Below, in pieces: positions 1 to 23,767 of a DNA stretch of 24,000 bases. The position numbers and the translations under genes were made by a program. The number at the start of each line of letters is the position of its first letter. Position 1 is the stretch's first letter. Below the pieces are notes generated by a model, which ran no database searches, was not told the DNA's origin, and saw only the letters and a program-made list of their open reading frames with translations. The DNA comes from Acidobacteriota bacterium (lineage in GTDB: Bacteria > Acidobacteriota > Vicinamibacteria > Vicinamibacterales > SCN-69-37): the NCBI GenBank assembly GCA_050264575.1, contig JBLNGH010000339.1, positions 875 through 24,874 of the forward strand. The letters run 5' to 3'.

Positions 1-2992
1 TGAAATCGCCTTCGCTGAGCAGCACCTGGCCCAGATCGTACGCGCCGTGAATCCGCGTCAGCTGCAGGCCATCGGGCGCCTGTCTGCCAAGCCGTTCGAT
101 CGTCGTCATGAGCTGATCGCGGCCGGCCAGCAGCGTCTGGATGAGAGTCGATGTGCCCGCGGGTGCGCGCTCGGCGGCCGAGCCGAGCGCGGCGAGCGTC
201 GAGTCGGTCTGCCGCCGTGTGCGTGAGACGAGCGCGCTGGTCCACTCGGCATCGAGCGCCGCGGTGCCGAACTCGGAGACGGCCTCGTCGCCGGCGAGCG
301 TGAGGTGCAGCTCGGCGGTGCGCCGTCCCAGCGTGGATGCCGCCTCGAGCGCGGAGCCGACCGTCCGCCGGGCGGCTTCCGGCACGTCTCCGGCCGAGAG
401 GGCTGGCGGTCGATCCCGCTGCGTCTCGCTCACGTCCCACGCGATCGCGCTCTCGAAGTAGCGCTCGAGCTCGCCGATCGCCTGGCGCCAGCCGTCCATC
501 TGATGCGGCACGAACGCGTGCAGGATCGCCAGCGTGGTCGTTTCGCCTGCCGTCGACGTGTACGCGATTGTCCCGGCCAGTCGCGGCGCGCGCGGGAAAT
601 GCGCGCGGTCCGTCAGGAAGCGGCCCATTTCGACTTCGTGATTCGGCCCCGGCCACAGCCGCCGCACCAGCTTCAGCACGAACCGCTCGCCAAACCGGAT
701 CGACGAGTTCGCGCGTTCGACGCTCGGGCTCACCGGCGCCAGATCGCCGTCCGGTGCCTGGGTCCGGATTTCGTCGAACACAGGCGTGCGCGATCCCTGC
801 AGCTGTCCGTGCCGCATGTCGGCGCTGCGCGTTTCGCCGATGACGGAGAACACCTCGCGCGCCTCGTCCGGATCGAGCGATGCATGCAGGATCCCTTTTG
901 CCGCGCCGGCAATTCGAGCGACGATGCCGTCTGGCGATTCCTGGACGATCACGTCAGCATGGGTGCCCGACGCCATCGCCAGCGGCACGAAGTAGCGATC
1001 CTCGCGGCCGTCCTCGAACTTGACGGCGAGGATCGTCGCCATGACCGGTTCCTTGCCGCCGCGCAGCGTGCTCCACTCGACGATTCTGGCGTCGGCGATC
1101 GCCGTGCCGCGCTTCTGGAACCAGCGCTGCCTGGCGAGGAACGGCGCCAGGTAGCGGCGCTCGAGCAGCGATCGCGCGCTGCCGGCCAGCGTGCGCGACC
1201 AGTCCTCGCCGAGCAGCACCGGCAGCGTCTCGATCTCCGATTCAGCGGCCGGGGCCAGCGGCCGGGCGGTCACCGGCGCCGGCGCCTGTCGCTTCAGCTC
1301 CAGCCAGTAGAACCCGTACGGCGCAAGCGTCAGGAAATACGGCGTCTCGCCGATGCGCGGGAGGTCGGTGCTGCCCGACATCTCGATCGGCACGAGACCC
1401 GAATACTTCGACAAATCCAGCGACACGGCCTGCATCGTGCGCGCCATGTTGGCGACGACGAGAATTGGATCCTCGGCATCGAGCCGGCGAATGAACGCGA
1501 AGACCCGGCGGTTTTCGGGACGGAGCAGCTCGATCGTCCCTCGTCCGAAGGTGCGATGGCGCTGGCGCAGCGCGATCAGCCGTCGCGTCCAGTTGAGGAG
1601 CGAATGCGGCGAGCGCTCCTGCGCCTCGACGTTGACGGACTGATATCCGTAGACCGAATCCATGACCACCGGCGCGTACAGCCGGGCCGGATCGGCGCGC
1701 GAGAAGCCACCGTTGCGGTCCGCGGTCCACTGCATCGGCGTCCGTACCGCGTTGCGATCGCCGAGGTACACGTTGTCACCCATGCCGAGTTCGTCGCCGT
1801 AATAGATGACCGGCGTGCCCGGGAGCGAGAGCAGCAGCCCGTTCAGCAGCTCGATCCGCGCCCGGCTGTTCTCCATCAGCGGCGCGAGCCGGCGGCGGAT
1901 GCCGGCGTTGACGCGCATCTGCGGGTCGGCGGCGTACGCCTGGTACATGTAGTCGCGCTCCTCGTCGGTCACCATTTCGAGCGTCAGCTCATCGTGGTTC
2001 CGCAAAAAGATCGCCCACTGACAGCTGTCGGGGATCTCCGGCGTCTGGTAGAGGATTTCGCTGATGGGATGGCGGTCTTCCTGCCGCATCGCCATGTACA
2101 GCCGCGGCATCAGCGGGAAATGAAAGGCCATGTGGCATTCGTCGCCGTCGCCGAAGTACGCGCAGACATCCGACGGCCACAGGTTCGCTTCCGCCAGGAA
2201 CATCCGATCGTGATAGCGCCCGTCCAGCTCGCGCCTCAGATTGCGGAGGACTTCGTGGGTTTCCGGCAGGTTCGCGCAGCTCGTGCCCTCGCGCTCGATC
2301 AGGTACGGCACGGCGTCGAGCCGCATGCCGTCGACGCCTTTGTCGAGCCAGAAGCGCATGACGCGCGTCACCGCTCTGCGGACCTGCGGGTTGTCGAAGT
2401 TCAGATCCGGCTGATGGTGGAAGAACCGGTGCCAGTAGTATGCGCCGGCCAGCGGATCCCACGTCCAGTTCGAGCGCTCGGTGTCGCTGAAAATAATCCG
2501 GACGCCCGCGTATTTCTGATCGGTATCGCTCCAGACGTAGTACTCGCGCTTGCGCGATCCGGCGCGGGCCCGGCGCGCCGCCTGGAACCACGGATGTTGA
2601 TCCGAGGTGTGGTTGATGACCAGCTCGGTGATGACGCGCAGCCCTCGCTCGTGCGCCTGATCCAGAAACGTCCGGAAGTCTTTCAGCGTGCCGTACGATT
2701 TGTGGACGCCTTCGTAGTGCGCAATGTCATAGCCGTCGTCGCGAAGCGGCGACGGGTAGAACGGCTGCAGCCAGATGCACGAGACGCCCAGCGACTGGAT
2801 GTAGTCGAGCTTGCGCGTCAGCCCGGCGAAATCGCCGACGCCGTCGTCGTCGCTGTCGAAAAAGCCCCGGACGTGGACCTGGTAGATGACCGCGTCTTTG
2901 TACCAGAGGCTAGGGGAGGTGTCAGGAGGACGGGGGTCGATTATGGAAAACTCGCCGGACTGCCTGGTAATGGTGTCCGGCGAGTTTCCCAC
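1..2992 (-). CDS. treS: Trehalose synthase (GH13, TreS) with C-terminal maltokinase-like domain; partial, 3' end runs off the left edge of the window
   Basis: Absent from the ORF track because it has no stop inside the window. Manual reverse-strand translation gives the canonical TreS blocks LWYKDAVIYQVHVRGFFDSDDDGVGDFAGLTRKLDYIQSLGVSCIWLQPFYPSPLRDDGYDI, VINHTSDQHPWF, GVDGMRLDAVPYL, FLAEANLWP, FLRNHDELTLEMVTDEERDYMY and LLLSLPGTPVIYYGDELGMGDN. The same frame at bp 2-58 reads TRIHGAYDLGQVLLSEGDF, which resembles the maltokinase HGDxHLGQVL block. The start is set at the in-frame GTG 2992-2990, the only canonical start upstream of the conserved WYKD block, so the start is uncertain. Confidence 0.85.
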   Translation of the reverse strand, partial: MGNSPDTITRQSGEFSIIDPRPPDTSPSLWYKDAVIYQVHVRGFFDSDDDGVGDFAGLTRKLDYIQSLGVSCIWLQPFYPSPLRDDGYDIAHYEGVHKSYGTLKDFRTFLDQAHERGLRVITELVINHTSDQHPWFQAARRARAGSRKREYYVWSDTDQKYAGVRIIFSDTERSNWTWDPLAGAYYWHRFFHHQPDLNFDNPQVRRAVTRVMRFWLDKGVDGMRLDAVPYLIEREGTSCANLPETHEVLRNLRRELDGRYHDRMFLAEANLWPSDVCAYFGDGDECHMAFHFPLMPRLYMAMRQEDRHPISEILYQTPEIPDSCQWAIFLRNHDELTLEMVTDEERDYMYQAYAADPQMRVNAGIRRRLAPLMENSRARIELLNGLLLSLPGTPVIYYGDELGMGDNVYLGDRNAVRTPMQWTADRNGGFSRADPARLYAPVVMDSVYGYQSVNVEAQERSPHSLLNWTRRLIALRQRHRTFGRGTIELLRPENRRVFAFIRRLDAEDPILVVANMARTMQAVSLDLSKYSGLVPIEMSGSTDLPRIGETPYFLTLAPYGFYWLELKRQAPAPVTARPLAPAAESEIETLPVLLGEDWSRTLAGSARSLLERRYLAPFLARQRWFQKRGTAIADARIVEWSTLRGGKEPVMATILAVKFEDGREDRYFVPLAMASGTHADVIVQESPDGIVARIAGAAKGILHASLDPDEAREVFSVIGETRSADMRHGQLQGSRTPVFDEIRTQAPDGDLAPVSPSVERANSSIRFGERFVLKLVRRLWPGPNHEVEMGRFLTDRAHFPRAPRLAGTIAYTSTAGETTTLAILHAFVPHQMDGWRQAIGELERYFESAIAWDVSETQRDRPPALSAGDVPEAARRTVGSALEAASTLGRRTAELHLTLAGDEAVSEFGTAALDAEWTSALVSRTRRQTDSTLAALGSAAERAPAGTSTLIQTLLAGRDQLMTTIERLGRQAPDGLQLTRIHGAYDLGQVLLSEGDF

Positions 2993-3012
2993 AATCGACG
3001 CCCCGTCCCCTC
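2925..3012. repeat. About 88-nt imperfect palindrome (arms 2925-2960 and 2975-3012, 14-nt loop) with GGACGGGGG / CCCCGTCC termini. It lies between the BNR-gene stop and treS and covers the predicted treS start codon.
   Basis: Left arm is GGAGGACGGGGGTCGATTATGGAAAACTCGCCGGAC. The reverse complement of the right arm is GAGGGGACGGGGCGTCGATTGTGGGAAACTCGCCGGAC. Hand pairing shows only a few mismatches or bulges. Confidence 0.7.
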
Positions 3013-15755: not shown

Positions 15756-16415
15756 CTAGGGGGCCAAAACATCCGCGAACACAAACCCTTCGCGCTCGAC
15801 GATGACGCCGGGTTCGATCGCGATGGGATGACCGAACATCGGTCCGGAAAAACAGAAGGTATGAAACTCGCCGCGCTCGCCGCACGGGTCAACACCCGGC
15901 GGCAGCTCGGCGAGGAGTGACGAATCGAAGCGGCGCCCGGCGAACCGGCGATCGAGCTGCCGCGGATCCACGCAGGTGAGAACCGCGCCCAGCCCGGACG
16001 CAAGCATCTCACGCGCGAGCGCATCCGTCGGCCGTTTCCAGAGCGGAAAGATCGGATCGAGTCCGGTGCCCGCCAGCCGCGATTCGCGGTACTGCCGGAC
16101 GTCTTCGAGAAAGAGATCGCCGAACGCGACGTGCGTCAATCCTTCCAATCGCGCGCGCGCCATCGCATCACGCATCCGCGCCTCGTAAATGTCGTTCGGA
16201 CAGGGCGATGGAATCGGTACATTCCAGAGCGGCAGGCCGGCCGCCTCCGCTTGCGCTTCGACAAGCGTTCGCCGGACTGCGTGCATCGCCACGCGATCCG
16301 CCTCCGCGTTGAACGTGGTCAGCAACGCGTGCACCTGCACGGCCGGATCCTGCCGGAGCACATGCAGGGCCCAGGCGGAATCCTTGCCTGACGACCACGA
16401 CAGCAGCACTTTCAT
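15756..16415 (-). CDS. Dph6-related / MJ0570-like PP-loop ATP pyrophosphatase (adenine nucleotide alpha-hydrolase superfamily, ATP_bind_4 type)
   Basis: The N-terminus MKVLLSWSSGKDSAWAL carries the SxGKDS PP-loop. Also present are FGDLFLEDVRQYRE, PLWKR and CGERGEFHTF. The ATG overlaps the upstream stop (ATGA at 16412-16415). Confidence 0.7.
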   Translation of the reverse strand: MKVLLSWSSGKDSAWALHVLRQDPAVQVHALLTTFNAEADRVAMHAVRRTLVEAQAEAAGLPLWNVPIPSPCPNDIYEARMRDAMARARLEGLTHVAFGDLFLEDVRQYRESRLAGTGLDPIFPLWKRPTDALAREMLASGLGAVLTCVDPRQLDRRFAGRRFDSSLLAELPPGVDPCGERGEFHTFCFSGPMFGHPIAIEPGVIVEREGFVFADVLAP

Positions 16416-17443
16416 TGAGTCGTGGCCCGCTGAAGCGGCTGCGGCGCGAAGGCGGCTGGATGCAGCACGCGCGCCAGCCGCCGGATCGCCTCTGCGACGC
16501 GGGGGCCGGGAATCGACATGAGATCGTCGGCGAGGATGTAGATGCGTCCCGTGCGGACGGCGGGAAGCGACGGAAGCGCCTTCCAGACGCCGCGCTCGCG
16601 TTCAATCTTCTCCGGCGTCCACCCTGCGCTGGCATAGACCTCGATAATCACCTCGGGTGCGCGGGCGAGCACGGTCTCCGCCGACAGCTGCAGGCTCTGG
16701 CGCTTGAGGTCCGCAAACGCGTCCATTCCGCCCGCGGCTTCCAACATGTCGTGCATGAACCCGACGCCGGCGCTGGCGTACATGCTCCGGAGAGTGCCGG
16801 CTTCACGGCCGAAGAGCAACGCCGTTTTCGGTCGTGGTCTTCCCGATACCCGCGTCCGGATGTCCGCGATGTCGCGCTCGATCTCCGACGCGATCCGGTC
16901 CGCCTCCGGCGAGCGGCCGACGCGTTCTCCAAGCTTTCGAATCGTCATCGTGATGTCCGGGAGGCCGGCGTGCTGGTACTCGAACCGCGGAATTCCTGCG
17001 CGATCGAGTCGCGCGATCAGCTCCTGCTGGGTGCCGTAGACGACGACGAGATCGGGTTTGAGCGCGAAGATCCGCTCGACATTCGGATCGAGCAGCGCGC
17101 CGACGCGCTCGCGCGACGCCACCGCCGCCGGGTACGTGTCGTAACTCGACACGCCGACGACCTGGTCTCCCGCGCCGATGGCAAACAACATCTCGGTGAC
17201 GGCGGGAATGACGGAGATGATGCGGCGAGGACGCTGAAGAAGGACGCTTGTCGGTACGACGGGTACAGCAGGTACGACAGGTACGTCGGGTCCCTGGAAC
17301 GATCTGACGCTGGCCATCTTTCCTTTACTAAGGAAGCTGGCGAGCGTCAGGCTCCTTGGACCTGACGTACCCGGCGTACCTGATGTGCCTGACGTACCGA
17401 CGCCGAGCGACGCGATCAGCGCGAGCGAAGCGAGGAGTTTCAT
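16412..17443 (-). CDS. ABC-transporter periplasmic substrate-binding protein, BtuF/FhuD-like (cobalamin / Fe3+-siderophore family)
   Basis: The start is set at the internal Met (MKLLASLALIASLG signal peptide), whose ATG overlaps the permease stop (ATGA at 17440-17443). The mature part, RIISVIPAVTEMLFAIGAGDQVVGVSSYDTYP ... LKPDLVVVYG, is typical of Peripla_BP_2. The 149 aa upstream in the track ORF overlap the permease gene and are Arg-rich shadow sequence. Confidence 0.8.
   Translation of the reverse strand: MKLLASLALIASLGVGTSGTSGTPGTSGPRSLTLASFLSKGKMASVRSFQGPDVPVVPAVPVVPTSVLLQRPRRIISVIPAVTEMLFAIGAGDQVVGVSSYDTYPAAVASRERVGALLDPNVERIFALKPDLVVVYGTQQELIARLDRAGIPRFEYQHAGLPDITMTIRKLGERVGRSPEADRIASEIERDIADIRTRVSGRPRPKTALLFGREAGTLRSMYASAGVGFMHDMLEAAGGMDAFADLKRQSLQLSAETVLARAPEVIIEVYASAGWTPEKIERERGVWKALPSLPAVRTGRIYILADDLMSIPGPRVAEAIRRLARVLHPAAFAPQPLQRATTQ
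17250..17401. repeat. Inverted pair of 44-nt arrays with 9-nt period (GTACCNNNN x4), arms 17250-17293 and 17358-17401 with a 64-nt spacer, lying in-frame inside the BtuF-like CDS
   Basis: Arm A is GTCGGTACGACGGGTACAGCAGGTACGACAGGTACGTCGGGTCC. The reverse complement of arm B is GTCGGTACGTCAGGCACATCAGGTACGCCGGGTACGTCAGGTCC, which matches 37/44. The arms encode GTSGTSGTPGTSGP and GPDVPVVPAVPVVPT between the signal peptide and the mature domain. Confidence 0.8.
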
Positions 17444-21597: not shown

Positions 21598-21659
21598 CGG
21601 GACCTCCTCGGCGTGTCTGCGCGCCGATCCGCGCTGAGTGATTCAGCGTCGGGTGAAGG

Positions 21660-21945
21660 ACGGCCCGGTGACCAGGTATCCTGACTCGCGAATCATCGCC
21701 GGCATCCGCGTCTTCCCACGCCGTGGAAGTCCCACGCGCGCAGTGACGGCCGGGGAATCGATCTATCGATTCATCGATCTATCGATCTATTGAAAATCAC
21801 TTGTCCTGGCACGCAAGGTCTTCAAAAGATCGATAGATCGATAATCCGGTAGATCGATTCACCCAGTCATTTTGGGACGCCGACTCCTCGCTGACAGTGG
21901 CGGCACCGTGTGGGATTTGCACCCACTTCCCTTGCCGCCGGGCGA
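21660..21945 (-). promoter_or_regulatory. Cobalamin (AdoCbl-type) riboswitch in the 5' leader of the TonB-receptor/ABC operon
   Basis: On the minus strand, AAGGGAAGTGGGTGCAAATCCCACACGGTGCCGCCACTGTCAG (plus 21891-21933) matches the GGGAA...GGTG.AAATCC...CCGCCACTGT core. GGCCGTCACTGCGCGCGTGGGACTTCCACGGCGTGGGAAGAC lies downstream and resembles the GCCACTG...GGGAAG element. The B12 box AGTCAGGATACCTGG is at plus 21672-21686. GCCCGG (21938-21943) can pair with CCGGGC (21662-21667) as a closing helix. A candidate -10 box TATACT is at plus 21965-21970. Confidence 0.8.
21752..21864. repeat. 113-nt near-perfect palindrome built from ATCGAT-containing 8-nt units (ATCGATCT / ATCGATAG), embedded in the riboswitch between the core and the B12 box
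   Basis: The plus strand reads GGGGAATCGATCTATCGATTCATCGATCTATCGATCTATTGAA, then a 25-nt loop, then TTCAAAAGATCGATAGATCGATAATCCGGTAGATCGATTCACCC. The arms are complementary except for one 7-nt internal patch, one mismatch and one bulge. Confidence 0.85.
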
Positions 21946-22017
21946 ACGTCGGTTGTCTGGCCGGAGTATAGCATGTCAAAATGAGCCGACAGTTCGACTC
22001 GAGCCCCACGGAGGAGC

Positions 22018-22555: not shown

Positions 22556-23733
22556 GAGCCAAGAGCTCTGAGAGGCCCTTCATGCTCCGTGCCCCTTCAT
22601 GCGATCTCGCTGACATCGATGTCAAGCTGACCGCCGGCGAACGGCTGTCGTTCGACGACGGCGTGCGTTTGTTCGAACATCCGGACCTGCACGCGCTCGG
22701 CGTGCTCGCCAACCGCGAGCGCGAGAAGCGTCACGGCGCGGTCACGTACTACAACTACAACCTGCGTCTCGAAGCGACGAACGTCTGTTCGGCGAGCTGC
22801 CTGTTCTGCTCGTTTGCGCGCCTCCGTCCCGGCGACCCCGGCGCGTACACGATGTCGATCGAGCACGTGCTGGACAAGGTTCGCGAGCGCGCCGATCAGC
22901 CGCTCACCGAAATCCACATCGTCAACGGCCTGCATCCCGGGTTGCCGTTCGACTACTACATCGACCTCCTCCGCGGGATCAAGCGGCTGCGGCCCGACCT
23001 TCATCTGAAGTGCTTCACGGCGGTGGAGATCGCGTTCTTCGCCGACACGTACGGCATGACGGACGTGGCCGTGCTGCGCGCGCTCATGGACGCGGGCCTC
23101 GATTCGCTGCCAGGCGGCGGGGCGGAGATCTTCGCCGAGCGCGTCCGGCGCAAGATTTGCCACGACAAGGCTGACGCGGATCGGTACCTCGCGATTCATC
23201 GCGCGGCGCATGCGCTCGGCCTGCGCTCGAACATCACGATGCTCTACGGGCATATCGAGACGATGGAGGAGCGGGTCGATCACATGCTGCGCACGCGCGC
23301 GCTGCAGGACGAGACCGGCGGACTGCAGGCGTTCATCCCGCTCGCGTTCCATCCGGACAACAACCAGATGCGCAAGCTGCCGGCGCCGACGGCGAGCGAT
23401 ACGCTGCGCGTGCACGCGGTCGCGAGATTGATGCTCGACAACGTGCCGCACATCAAGGCGTTCTGGATTGCGGCCGGCGTCGAGGTCGCGCAGCTGGCGC
23501 AATGGTACGGCGCCGACGATCTCGACGGCACGGTGCAGGAAGAGCGGATCTACCACATGGCCGGTTCACGCACGCCGGAATCGCTGTCGACCGCGGACAT
23601 CCGGCGCCTGATCCTCGCGTCCGGCCGGACGCCGGTCGAACGCGACACGTTGTACAACCGGGTGTACGGGGGACGGGGGTTTTCAACAGATCCGCCTGGT
23701 CGGGGCCGGAGGTCCCTCGGGCCTCCGGCCTGA
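22552..23733 (+). CDS. mqnE: Radical-SAM futalosine-pathway enzyme, MqnE-like (aminodeoxyfutalosine synthase; MqnC not excluded)
   Basis: The radical-SAM cluster motif is NVCSASCLFCSF (CxxxCxxC). Other blocks are TEIHIVNGLHPGLPFDYY, LHLKCFTAVEI, LDSLPGGGAEIF, NITMLYGHIETMEERVDH, LQDETGGLQAFIPLAFHP and DDLDGTVQEERIYHMAG, ending in RTPVERDTLYNRV. The GTVxEE block favours MqnE by eye. The alternative start ATG 22582 has a better SD (GAGAGG, 6-nt spacing). The last 21 codons and the stop lie inside a palindromic element. Confidence 0.75.
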   Translation: MGAKSSERPFMLRAPSCDLADIDVKLTAGERLSFDDGVRLFEHPDLHALGVLANREREKRHGAVTYYNYNLRLEATNVCSASCLFCSFARLRPGDPGAYTMSIEHVLDKVRERADQPLTEIHIVNGLHPGLPFDYYIDLLRGIKRLRPDLHLKCFTAVEIAFFADTYGMTDVAVLRALMDAGLDSLPGGGAEIFAERVRRKICHDKADADRYLAIHRAAHALGLRSNITMLYGHIETMEERVDHMLRTRALQDETGGLQAFIPLAFHPDNNQMRKLPAPTASDTLRVHAVARLMLDNVPHIKAFWIAAGVEVAQLAQWYGADDLDGTVQEERIYHMAGSRTPESLSTADIRRLILASGRTPVERDTLYNRVYGGRGFSTDPPGRGRRSLGPPA

Positions 23734-23767
23734 CCTGTGCGGATCTGTGGAAAAACCCCCGTCCCCC
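23668..23767. repeat. 100-nt near-perfect extended palindrome with GGGGGACGGGGG / CCCCCGTCCCCC termini, overlapping the 3' end and stop codon of the mqnE-like gene
   Basis: The outer arms are GGGGGACGGGGGTTTTCAACAGATCCGC (23668-23695) and GCGGATCTGTGGAAAAACCCCCGTCCCCC (23739-23767). The middle pair is GGTC/GACC. The inner pair is GGCCGGAGG (23704-23712) and CCTCCGGCC (23722-23730), with loop TCCCTCGGG. Confidence 0.85.

Follow-up and report, generated by a model that had tools for sequence, protein, structure and literature searches.

A translated copy of a dispersed hairpin repeat in the btuF gene of a Vicinamibacterales bacterium

Introduction

How does a long palindrome made of short tandem units come to lie in frame within the gene of a periplasmic binding protein? 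The question is raised by a metagenome-assembled genome of a soil Acidobacteriota bacterium (Vicinamibacterales, SCN-69-37; GCA_050264575.1), in a stretch of 24,000 nt of contig JBLNGH010000339.1 that was analyzed as a whole and is referred to here as the window. A sequence-only reading of the window had suggested a dispersed palindromic element inserted in frame, similar to the Rickettsia palindromic elements (RPEs), and had offered a domesticated linker, an mRNA structure and an alternative internal start as further possibilities. RPEs are dispersed palindromes found in frame in genes, with nearly half of the members of three families located in ORFs (Ogata et al. 2000, summarised in PMC10969869). 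Here the locus is compared with the window's own assembly (G000, 6.05 Mb), with two congeners (G001 and G002), with a JGI metagenome protein (P0003, referred to as J1) and with orthologs from a wider set of relatives.

Results

The btuF locus and its palindrome

The gene, located at 16412..17443 on the minus strand, encodes a BtuF-like periplasmic cobalamin-binding protein of 343 aa and is the fourth gene of a cobalamin-riboswitch operon with the order riboswitch (RF00174), TonB-dependent receptor, ABC ATPase, FecCD permease, Peripla_BP_2 protein and Dph6-like PP-loop protein. Its ATG overlaps the stop codon of the FecCD permease gene (ATGA), and this overlap is kept in G002 and J1. The signal-peptide coding stretch (MKLLASLALIASLG; 17402..17443, minus strand), as read from the sequence, occupies the 14 codons ahead of the element, and the signal peptide is similar to that of the insert-free ortholog in G001. 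The Peripla_BP_2 domain (16523..17221, minus strand; residues 75-307, Pfam E = 1.2e-30) is intact. The element is in frame on the minus strand between these two features, which agrees with its original placement.

The segment 17250-17401 is a near-complete palindrome of 152 nt. Its outer arms (17250-17298 and 17353-17401) are 49 nt each, 82% complementary and 54 nt apart; the centre between them (17299..17352) contains an inner inverted repeat of 17 nt (17304-17320 and 17334-17350, 88%), so that almost the whole 152 nt forms one palindrome. Tandem Repeats Finder detects a 9-nt period in both arms. The arm that is 5' in the coding sense (17353..17401) consists of a foot, GTCGG, followed by four 9-nt GGTACGNCN units and GGTCC, and encodes VGTSGTSGTPGTSGP; the 3' arm (17250..17298) encodes QGPDVPVVPAVPVVPT. 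The unit has no run of three G. A recount of the two opposed 44-nt arrays, 64 nt apart, gave 37 Watson-Crick pairs, one G-T pair and six mismatches, identical to the 37 of 44 first noted, and translation reproduced both array peptides quoted in the sequence-only reading. Folding of the minus-strand RNA of 17240-17411 yielded -105.1 kcal/mol, compared with -56.8 +/- 4.5 for shuffled sequences (z = -10.85; 0 of 200 shuffles as good). An Rfam search of the element returned two sub-threshold miRNA-hairpin matches only.

The centre holds a family-conserved core, CTGACGCTGGCCATCTT, at 17304-17320 on the + strand, and the reverse complement of this core bears the SD-like AAGGAAAG-ATG that had been noticed in the spacer on the coding strand. 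The ATG, which is CAT at 17315-17317 on the + strand, is in the btuF frame, where it encodes Met43, and the SD-like purine run stands 3 nt before it. A probable outer terminus of the element is present on one side only, at 17235..17249, where the + strand reads TGAAGAAGGACGCTT compared with TGAAAAGCGCTT in the family consensus and encodes SVLLQ; the assignment is based on the flank consensus of 40 copies and on alignment to the long member C497 described below. The opposite terminus is not recognisable. The element probably extends from 17235 to about 17401, and because the 152-nt core is not a multiple of 3, the true insert is either longer or accompanied by a duplication. The insert is not an assembly artefact, because it also occurs in G002 and in four independent JGI metagenome contigs.

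A second, different palindrome is present in the same operon. At 21752-21864, within the cobalamin riboswitch (21654-21971), lies a 113-nt palindrome with ATCGATCT-type arms (-72.6 kcal/mol), and it is for this reason that the RF00174 match spans 318 nt for a model of 189 positions.

Orthologs with and without the insert

The btuF gene was found in 36 of the 41 relatives searched. The G002 protein, which has 78% amino acid identity and matches from residue 1, contains the element as an in-frame 146-nt copy at the same position; J1, known from four JGI sample contigs, has a 152-nt copy at the same codon position, likewise in frame. In G001 and in every other genus, the signal peptide is followed by the conserved RIISLIPAVTEM within about 10-30 residues, with no insert between them. 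Of 80 further orthologs, taken from MAGs of Vicinamibacterales and other Acidobacteriota, nearly all are likewise without it, and the orthologs that lack the insert number about 70 in all, besides G001. Alignment thus bears out the expectation that about 50 residues are extra in this protein; they are missing outside a small clade. The simplest history is a single gain in the common ancestor of G000, J1 and G002, where it is the direction of the event that we infer.

How the insert has changed since then can be followed in a small sample of three orthologs (G000, G002 and J1). Third-codon identity to G000 in the domain is 0.52 for G002 and 0.58 for J1, and identity of the insert to G000 is 74% and 92%, respectively. 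Orthologous copies differ by indels of 3, 6 and 3 nt in an alignment that is not codon-guided. By codon position, the identity of the insert is 0.77, 0.83 and 0.63, compared with 0.86, 0.93 and 0.52 in the domain. Each copy is still a strong hairpin (-100 to -116 kcal/mol), and that of G002 has 36 consecutive perfect pairs. Three stem pairs show compensatory double changes between G002 and G000/J1. The G-U and A-C mismatches in the stem show no preference for the mRNA strand. G000, G002 and J1 all keep the 5' half of the element open and in register with the upstream ATGA-coupled start.

The sequence-only reading had named a linker shared by distant orthologs, with its complementarity lost, as the finding that would speak against an inserted element; what is found instead is that the orthologous copies stay complementary. 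We conclude that a nucleotide-level force keeps the units near consensus; it may be pairing, conversion between units inside the palindrome, or exchange with copies elsewhere.

A lineage-specific family of hairpins

Other inverted pairs of (GGTACGNCN)n arrays, which the sequence-only reading proposed to look for, are numerous in G000 and its relatives. The 152-nt element has 56 matches in G000, four of which are full length (C242, C183, C402 and C133); the number of copies is about 20 in G000 and about 40 and 80 in the two congeners. Occurrences of the inner arm motif number 160 in G001 and 80 in G002, compared with 0-1 for a reversed control pattern, and almost all of them form facing pairs separated by 70-110 nt. 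Of 24 representatives of the genera in the taxonomic family, 14 have the repeat, and it was found in none of the 16 other families of the order. With copies this abundant and the outer orthologs free of the insert, the main idea of the earlier reading, a dispersed palindromic element inserted in frame in the manner of an RPE, is supported.

Arms contain 1-5 units across copies, and orthologous copies can differ in unit number. The palindrome extends outward into a terminus with the consensus TGAAAAGCGCNN, and in some copies the terminus and the first unit together are tandemly repeated. Terminal inverted repeats, small size, multiple copies and the lack of a transposase gene of its own are features that the element shares with MITEs. 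At two intergenic sites, some congeners have a copy and others an empty site. No target-site duplication is visible in 40 copies or in the two filled/empty site pairs, whose flanks are too diverged for base-level resolution. When the two arms of one copy were compared with arms of different copies at variable positions (35 copies), agreement was 85 of 140 versus an expectation of 78.5 +/- 4.3; the difference is not significant (p = 0.09) and gives no support to pairing selection across the family.

The location of the btuF copy is exceptional. GC3 and an open-frame test place 39 of 40 copies sampled from G001 and G002 between genes, and the remaining one is only a possible 5'-end overlap with a gene; of about 15 copies tested in G000, that of the window alone is clearly inside a real gene. 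The family thus does not have the large share of copies inside ORFs that RPEs have, and the btuF copy is a rare survivor, RPE-like in outcome and not in habit. A search with the insert peptide retrieved the orthologous BtuF cluster only, which says little about in-frame copies in other genes.

Two family copies lie close to other gene ends. In G001, a GGTAC-family copy (C3:21333-21485; L050 2334-2486) is located at the 3' end of btuF, where it provides some 50 residues of the C-terminus as well as the stop codon, which falls in the distal arm of the copy; the Dph6-like gene begins directly after it. In G002, a copy at C35:8914-9030 (L160 315-431) lies 22 nt upstream of a MoeA-like gene, and its central ATG is in frame with the MoeA start with no intervening stop, which may be due to chance (one of three frames).

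These hairpins belong to a genome rich in palindromes. With a long palindrome defined by an arm of at least 24 nt and at least 80% complementarity, G000 has at least 440 of many kinds in 6 Mb, or roughly one per 12 genes, compared with 4 in shuffled sequence. About a dozen appear to be internal to coding sequence, and at least 85 of the 440 have arms of 7- or 8-nt tandem units. The window itself contains two hairpins of another palindrome family of G000, at 2925-3012 and 23668-23767 (-73 and -95 kcal/mol), which have GGGGGACGGGGG-type feet and unrelated interiors. We found no paper describing the GGTAC hairpin family.

Longer members with a PF05635 gene

Some members of the family are longer and contain a gene for a PF05635 protein, of the 23S-rRNA-IVS (S23p)/Avd-like four-helix-bundle family. 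In the member at C497:3056-3764, the same 4-unit arms surround such a gene (C497:3381-3644, 54 bits), and two further members with the same arms, C57 and C394, contain decayed PF05635 genes (28-30 bits). The C497 ORF lacks an evident start codon and may itself be decayed; an intact, arm-flanked gene is found in G000 at C430:15744-16046. The btuF copy can be aligned to the C497 element at either end. In the gene-distal part of C497 the alignment spans the AAAGATG core to the outer terminus, and this core includes the final codons of the PF05635 ORF together with its TGA stop. The btuF copy has no PF05635 ORF in its loop and no ORF of its own.

The association is broader than one type of arm. 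PF05635 loci lie between inverted tandem arrays in 10 of 13 cases in G000 and in at least 6 of 9 in G001 and G002, and the unit, 7-16 nt long in G000 and the two congeners, is different at each locus. Examples from G000 besides C497:3056-3764 are C430:15589-16300, C275:560-1500, C251:9900-10560, C25:16650-17200, C460:16800-17400 and C268:1300-2100, and further arm-bracketed loci are L199, L202, L206, L208 and L197. The arm types include ATCGAT, which interrupts the riboswitch of the btuF operon, as well as GGGCARA and GAACTTC; units of the riboswitch type (ATCGATCT) flank a PF05635 gene in G002 (L197). Short elements with GGGCARA or GAACTTC arms have an inner core, GGAACGAACTGACGCTGGCCATCTT, in common with the GGTAC family. 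This core is found with other arms in G000 at C19:7713, C45:29995, C255:1891, C278:3195, C286:5223, C296:8187, C416:2321, C150:2170-2217 and C406:343.

No parent IS with a transposase and the same terminal repeats was found; the long members carry the PF05635 gene instead. Several candidate mobility partners were considered and rejected. RAYT/Y1 transposases are represented by 11 PF01797 loci in G000-G002, none of which has an arm or core motif within 1.5 kb, and TnpB (PF07282) was not found in these three genomes. An IS1-like fragment occurs inside a 2.1-kb arm-bounded stretch of G002; relatives of the fragment occur in few genomes (6 of 31) and are not flanked by arms. An IS5-family transposase adjoins a single arm, for which no matching second end was found.

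The translated insert

In an AlphaFold model based on an alignment of 34 sequences, pLDDT stays below 50 over residues 1-68 and exceeds 90 over residues 70-330. The model predicts that the element-encoded residues, about 50 in number and rich in Gly, Thr, Ser, Pro and Val, form a disordered tail and that the binding domain is intact. As judged from the sequence, cleavage of the signal peptide would fall after GVG, past the hydrophobic core, and the element peptide would then most likely be the mature N-terminal tail of exported BtuF.

Discussion

Origin of the insert

Our preferred interpretation, in which we have good though not complete confidence, is that the btuF hairpin is a gene-less copy of a foldback repeat specific to a lineage of Vicinamibacterales, that is, selfish or neutral DNA tolerated at a permissive site and, we infer, lacking a function. 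The family has arms of tandem 9-nt GGTACGNCN units around a conserved centre, and one copy would have landed just past the signal-peptide codons of btuF in an ancestor of G000, G002 and the metagenomic relative. That copy would have survived because its ribosome-facing frame has no stop and the added length keeps btuF in frame. It would now be translated as a disordered tail of about 50 residues; its hairpin potential would be maintained at the nucleotide level, through pairing or through concerted evolution of the units, rather than by selection for the peptide.

Alternatively, selection may act on the hairpin as a cis-acting structure, in mRNA or DNA, where the permease and btuF genes of the B12-riboswitch operon meet, which would leave the peptide as a by-product. 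Such a structure might be a site of processing by RNase III, might stabilise the distal mRNA, or might slow translational coupling and in this way set the ratio of binding protein to permease. A regulatory mRNA structure at btuF is conceivable, and the stem has indeed been kept, with its three compensatory pairs, though synonymous sites are near saturation. However, the window copy has six mismatches in 44 pairs, the G-U and A-C mismatches are without mRNA-strand bias, no covariation is seen across the family, and compared with G002 the element is less conserved than the coding sequence on both sides. Long palindromes of unrelated sequence stand at this junction in about 8-10 of 78 other orthologs, G001 has a same-family copy at the opposite end of btuF, and the riboswitch of the operon contains yet another palindrome, all of which could suggest that hairpins are favored here; but a junction frequency of about 10% is near the genome-wide palindrome density, and we therefore claim no targeting. 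On balance, we regard a selected structure as unlikely. The unrelated junction palindromes (L064, L071, L067, L126, L121, L096, L080 and L098, all from other Vicinamibacterales MAGs) are located about 300 nt before the PAVTEM motif, and in L064, L071 and L067 the signal peptide is encoded within the hairpin, its hydrophobic core by the loop and the flanks by the arms.

Domestication of the element as a flexible tether or linker that serves a function at the N-terminus of mature BtuF fares worse, and we consider it very improbable. The insert is held in frame in three lineages, and its low-complexity Gly/Thr/Ser/Pro composition and the disorder in the AlphaFold model are what a tether would have. 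Yet the identity of the insert is flat over codon positions, unlike that of the domain, the G000 and G002 peptides are substantially different, some 70 orthologs work without the insert, and the same DNA is non-coding in 39 of 40 other copies. The domestication suggested by the sequence-only reading is therefore not shown; what the data describe is a predicted disordered tail with substitutions spread evenly over codon positions. The use of the internal AAGGAAAG-ATG as an alternative start yielding a non-exported BtuF, also suggested earlier, is scarcely credible even though an SD-like purine run precedes the in-frame ATG and the motif is kept in J1 and G002, since the motif is also within the family consensus of intergenic copies, aligns with the last codons and stop of the PF05635 ORF in the long member, which makes the supposed SD plus Met a relic of the parent element, would give a product without the signal peptide that a periplasmic binding protein needs, and lies downstream of a 5' half that is in register with the ATGA-coupled start in three orthologs.

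Relation to known repeats

The foldback repeat to which we assign the btuF copy resembles several known systems, each in part. Like an RPE, the btuF insert is a dispersed palindrome of about 150 bp, in frame in an intact housekeeping gene, with its peptide at a permissive place. The likeness is to RPEs as described, in another phylum and at another base composition, and unlike RPEs the arms consist of tandem 9-nt units and in-gene copies are the exception (one of about 20 in G000; at most one of 40 in the relatives). Hairpin MITEs such as Correia/NEMIS and ERIC (PMC10969869) are likewise small, multicopy, without a transposase and with long terminal inverted repeats, mostly intergenic and variably present between related genomes, but here neither a target-site duplication nor a transposase-bearing parent IS was found. 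The pattern of a normal MITE is also reversed: conservation lies in the centre, around which subfamilies have arms of different units (GGTAC, GGGCARA and GAACTTC).

In Xanthomonas, convergent arrays of the heptamer GGGAATC form 70-75 pairs in each genome, and 89-93% of these are intergenic, near the ends of ORFs (Rehm et al. 2015, PMC4692102). Both there and here, inverted arrays of a short tandem unit (6-9 nt) are potential hairpins. The present unit, in contrast, is 9 nt long, not rich in G tracts and without G-quadruplex potential; the family has a conserved centre and outer termini, and its btuF copy is translated. REP/REPIN sequences with their RAYT (PMC3733652) are also hairpin-forming dispersed repeats that occasionally lie inside ORFs, but the present element is much longer than a REP, and no RAYT gene in the three congeneric genomes is flanked by the repeat. 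In outcome, then, the btuF copy is RPE-like, and in habit the family is closer to intergenic hairpin MITEs and the Xanthomonas inverted heptamer arrays.

For the long members, the closest parallel is with the ORF-bearing intervening sequences (IVS) of 23S rRNA genes in Coxiella and Leptospira (S23p/PF05635; PMC4990558), in which a stem of inverted termini has a PF05635 four-helix-bundle gene in its loop. The short btuF copy retains both ends of this layout, with a long stem; it differs in that it lies in an mRNA and not in helix 25 or 45 of 23S rRNA, and in lacking an ORF. In G001 and G002 the 23S genes (2991-2993 nt, full-length model match) contain no IVS.

A conserved centre with variable arms is not explained by any ordinary transposon model. 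We suggest that the short elements derive from PF05635 hairpin cassettes, and we speculate that the PF05635 protein moves them. A wider proposal, which we put forward tentatively and think slightly more prone to be wrong than right, is that the btuF hairpin is a MITE-like gene-less derivative of PF05635 cassettes of the same kind as the ORF-bearing 23S IVS, that one superfamily with fast-changing arms and a conserved inner relic accounts for the tandem-arm palindromes of Vicinamibacterales, and that the PF05635 protein is its own maintenance or mobility factor and not a transposase. If true, a single superfamily would cover palindromes in intergenic gaps, in a riboswitch, at gene ends and within ORFs.

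Implications

The btuF insert provides a clean case in three lineages, outside Rickettsia, of selfish palindromic DNA joining a conserved protein, and it offers both an insert-free state and a datable origin. The family it belongs to is an abundant set of gene-less hairpins tied to longer, PF05635-bearing members by common arms, inner sequence and outer termini, which gives a handle on two old puzzles, the role of the S23p/IVS protein and the spread of tandem-arm palindromes without a transposase. For the annotation of soil Acidobacteriota it carries a warning as well: hairpins can provide the N-terminal tails, C-terminal tails and stop codons of real genes.
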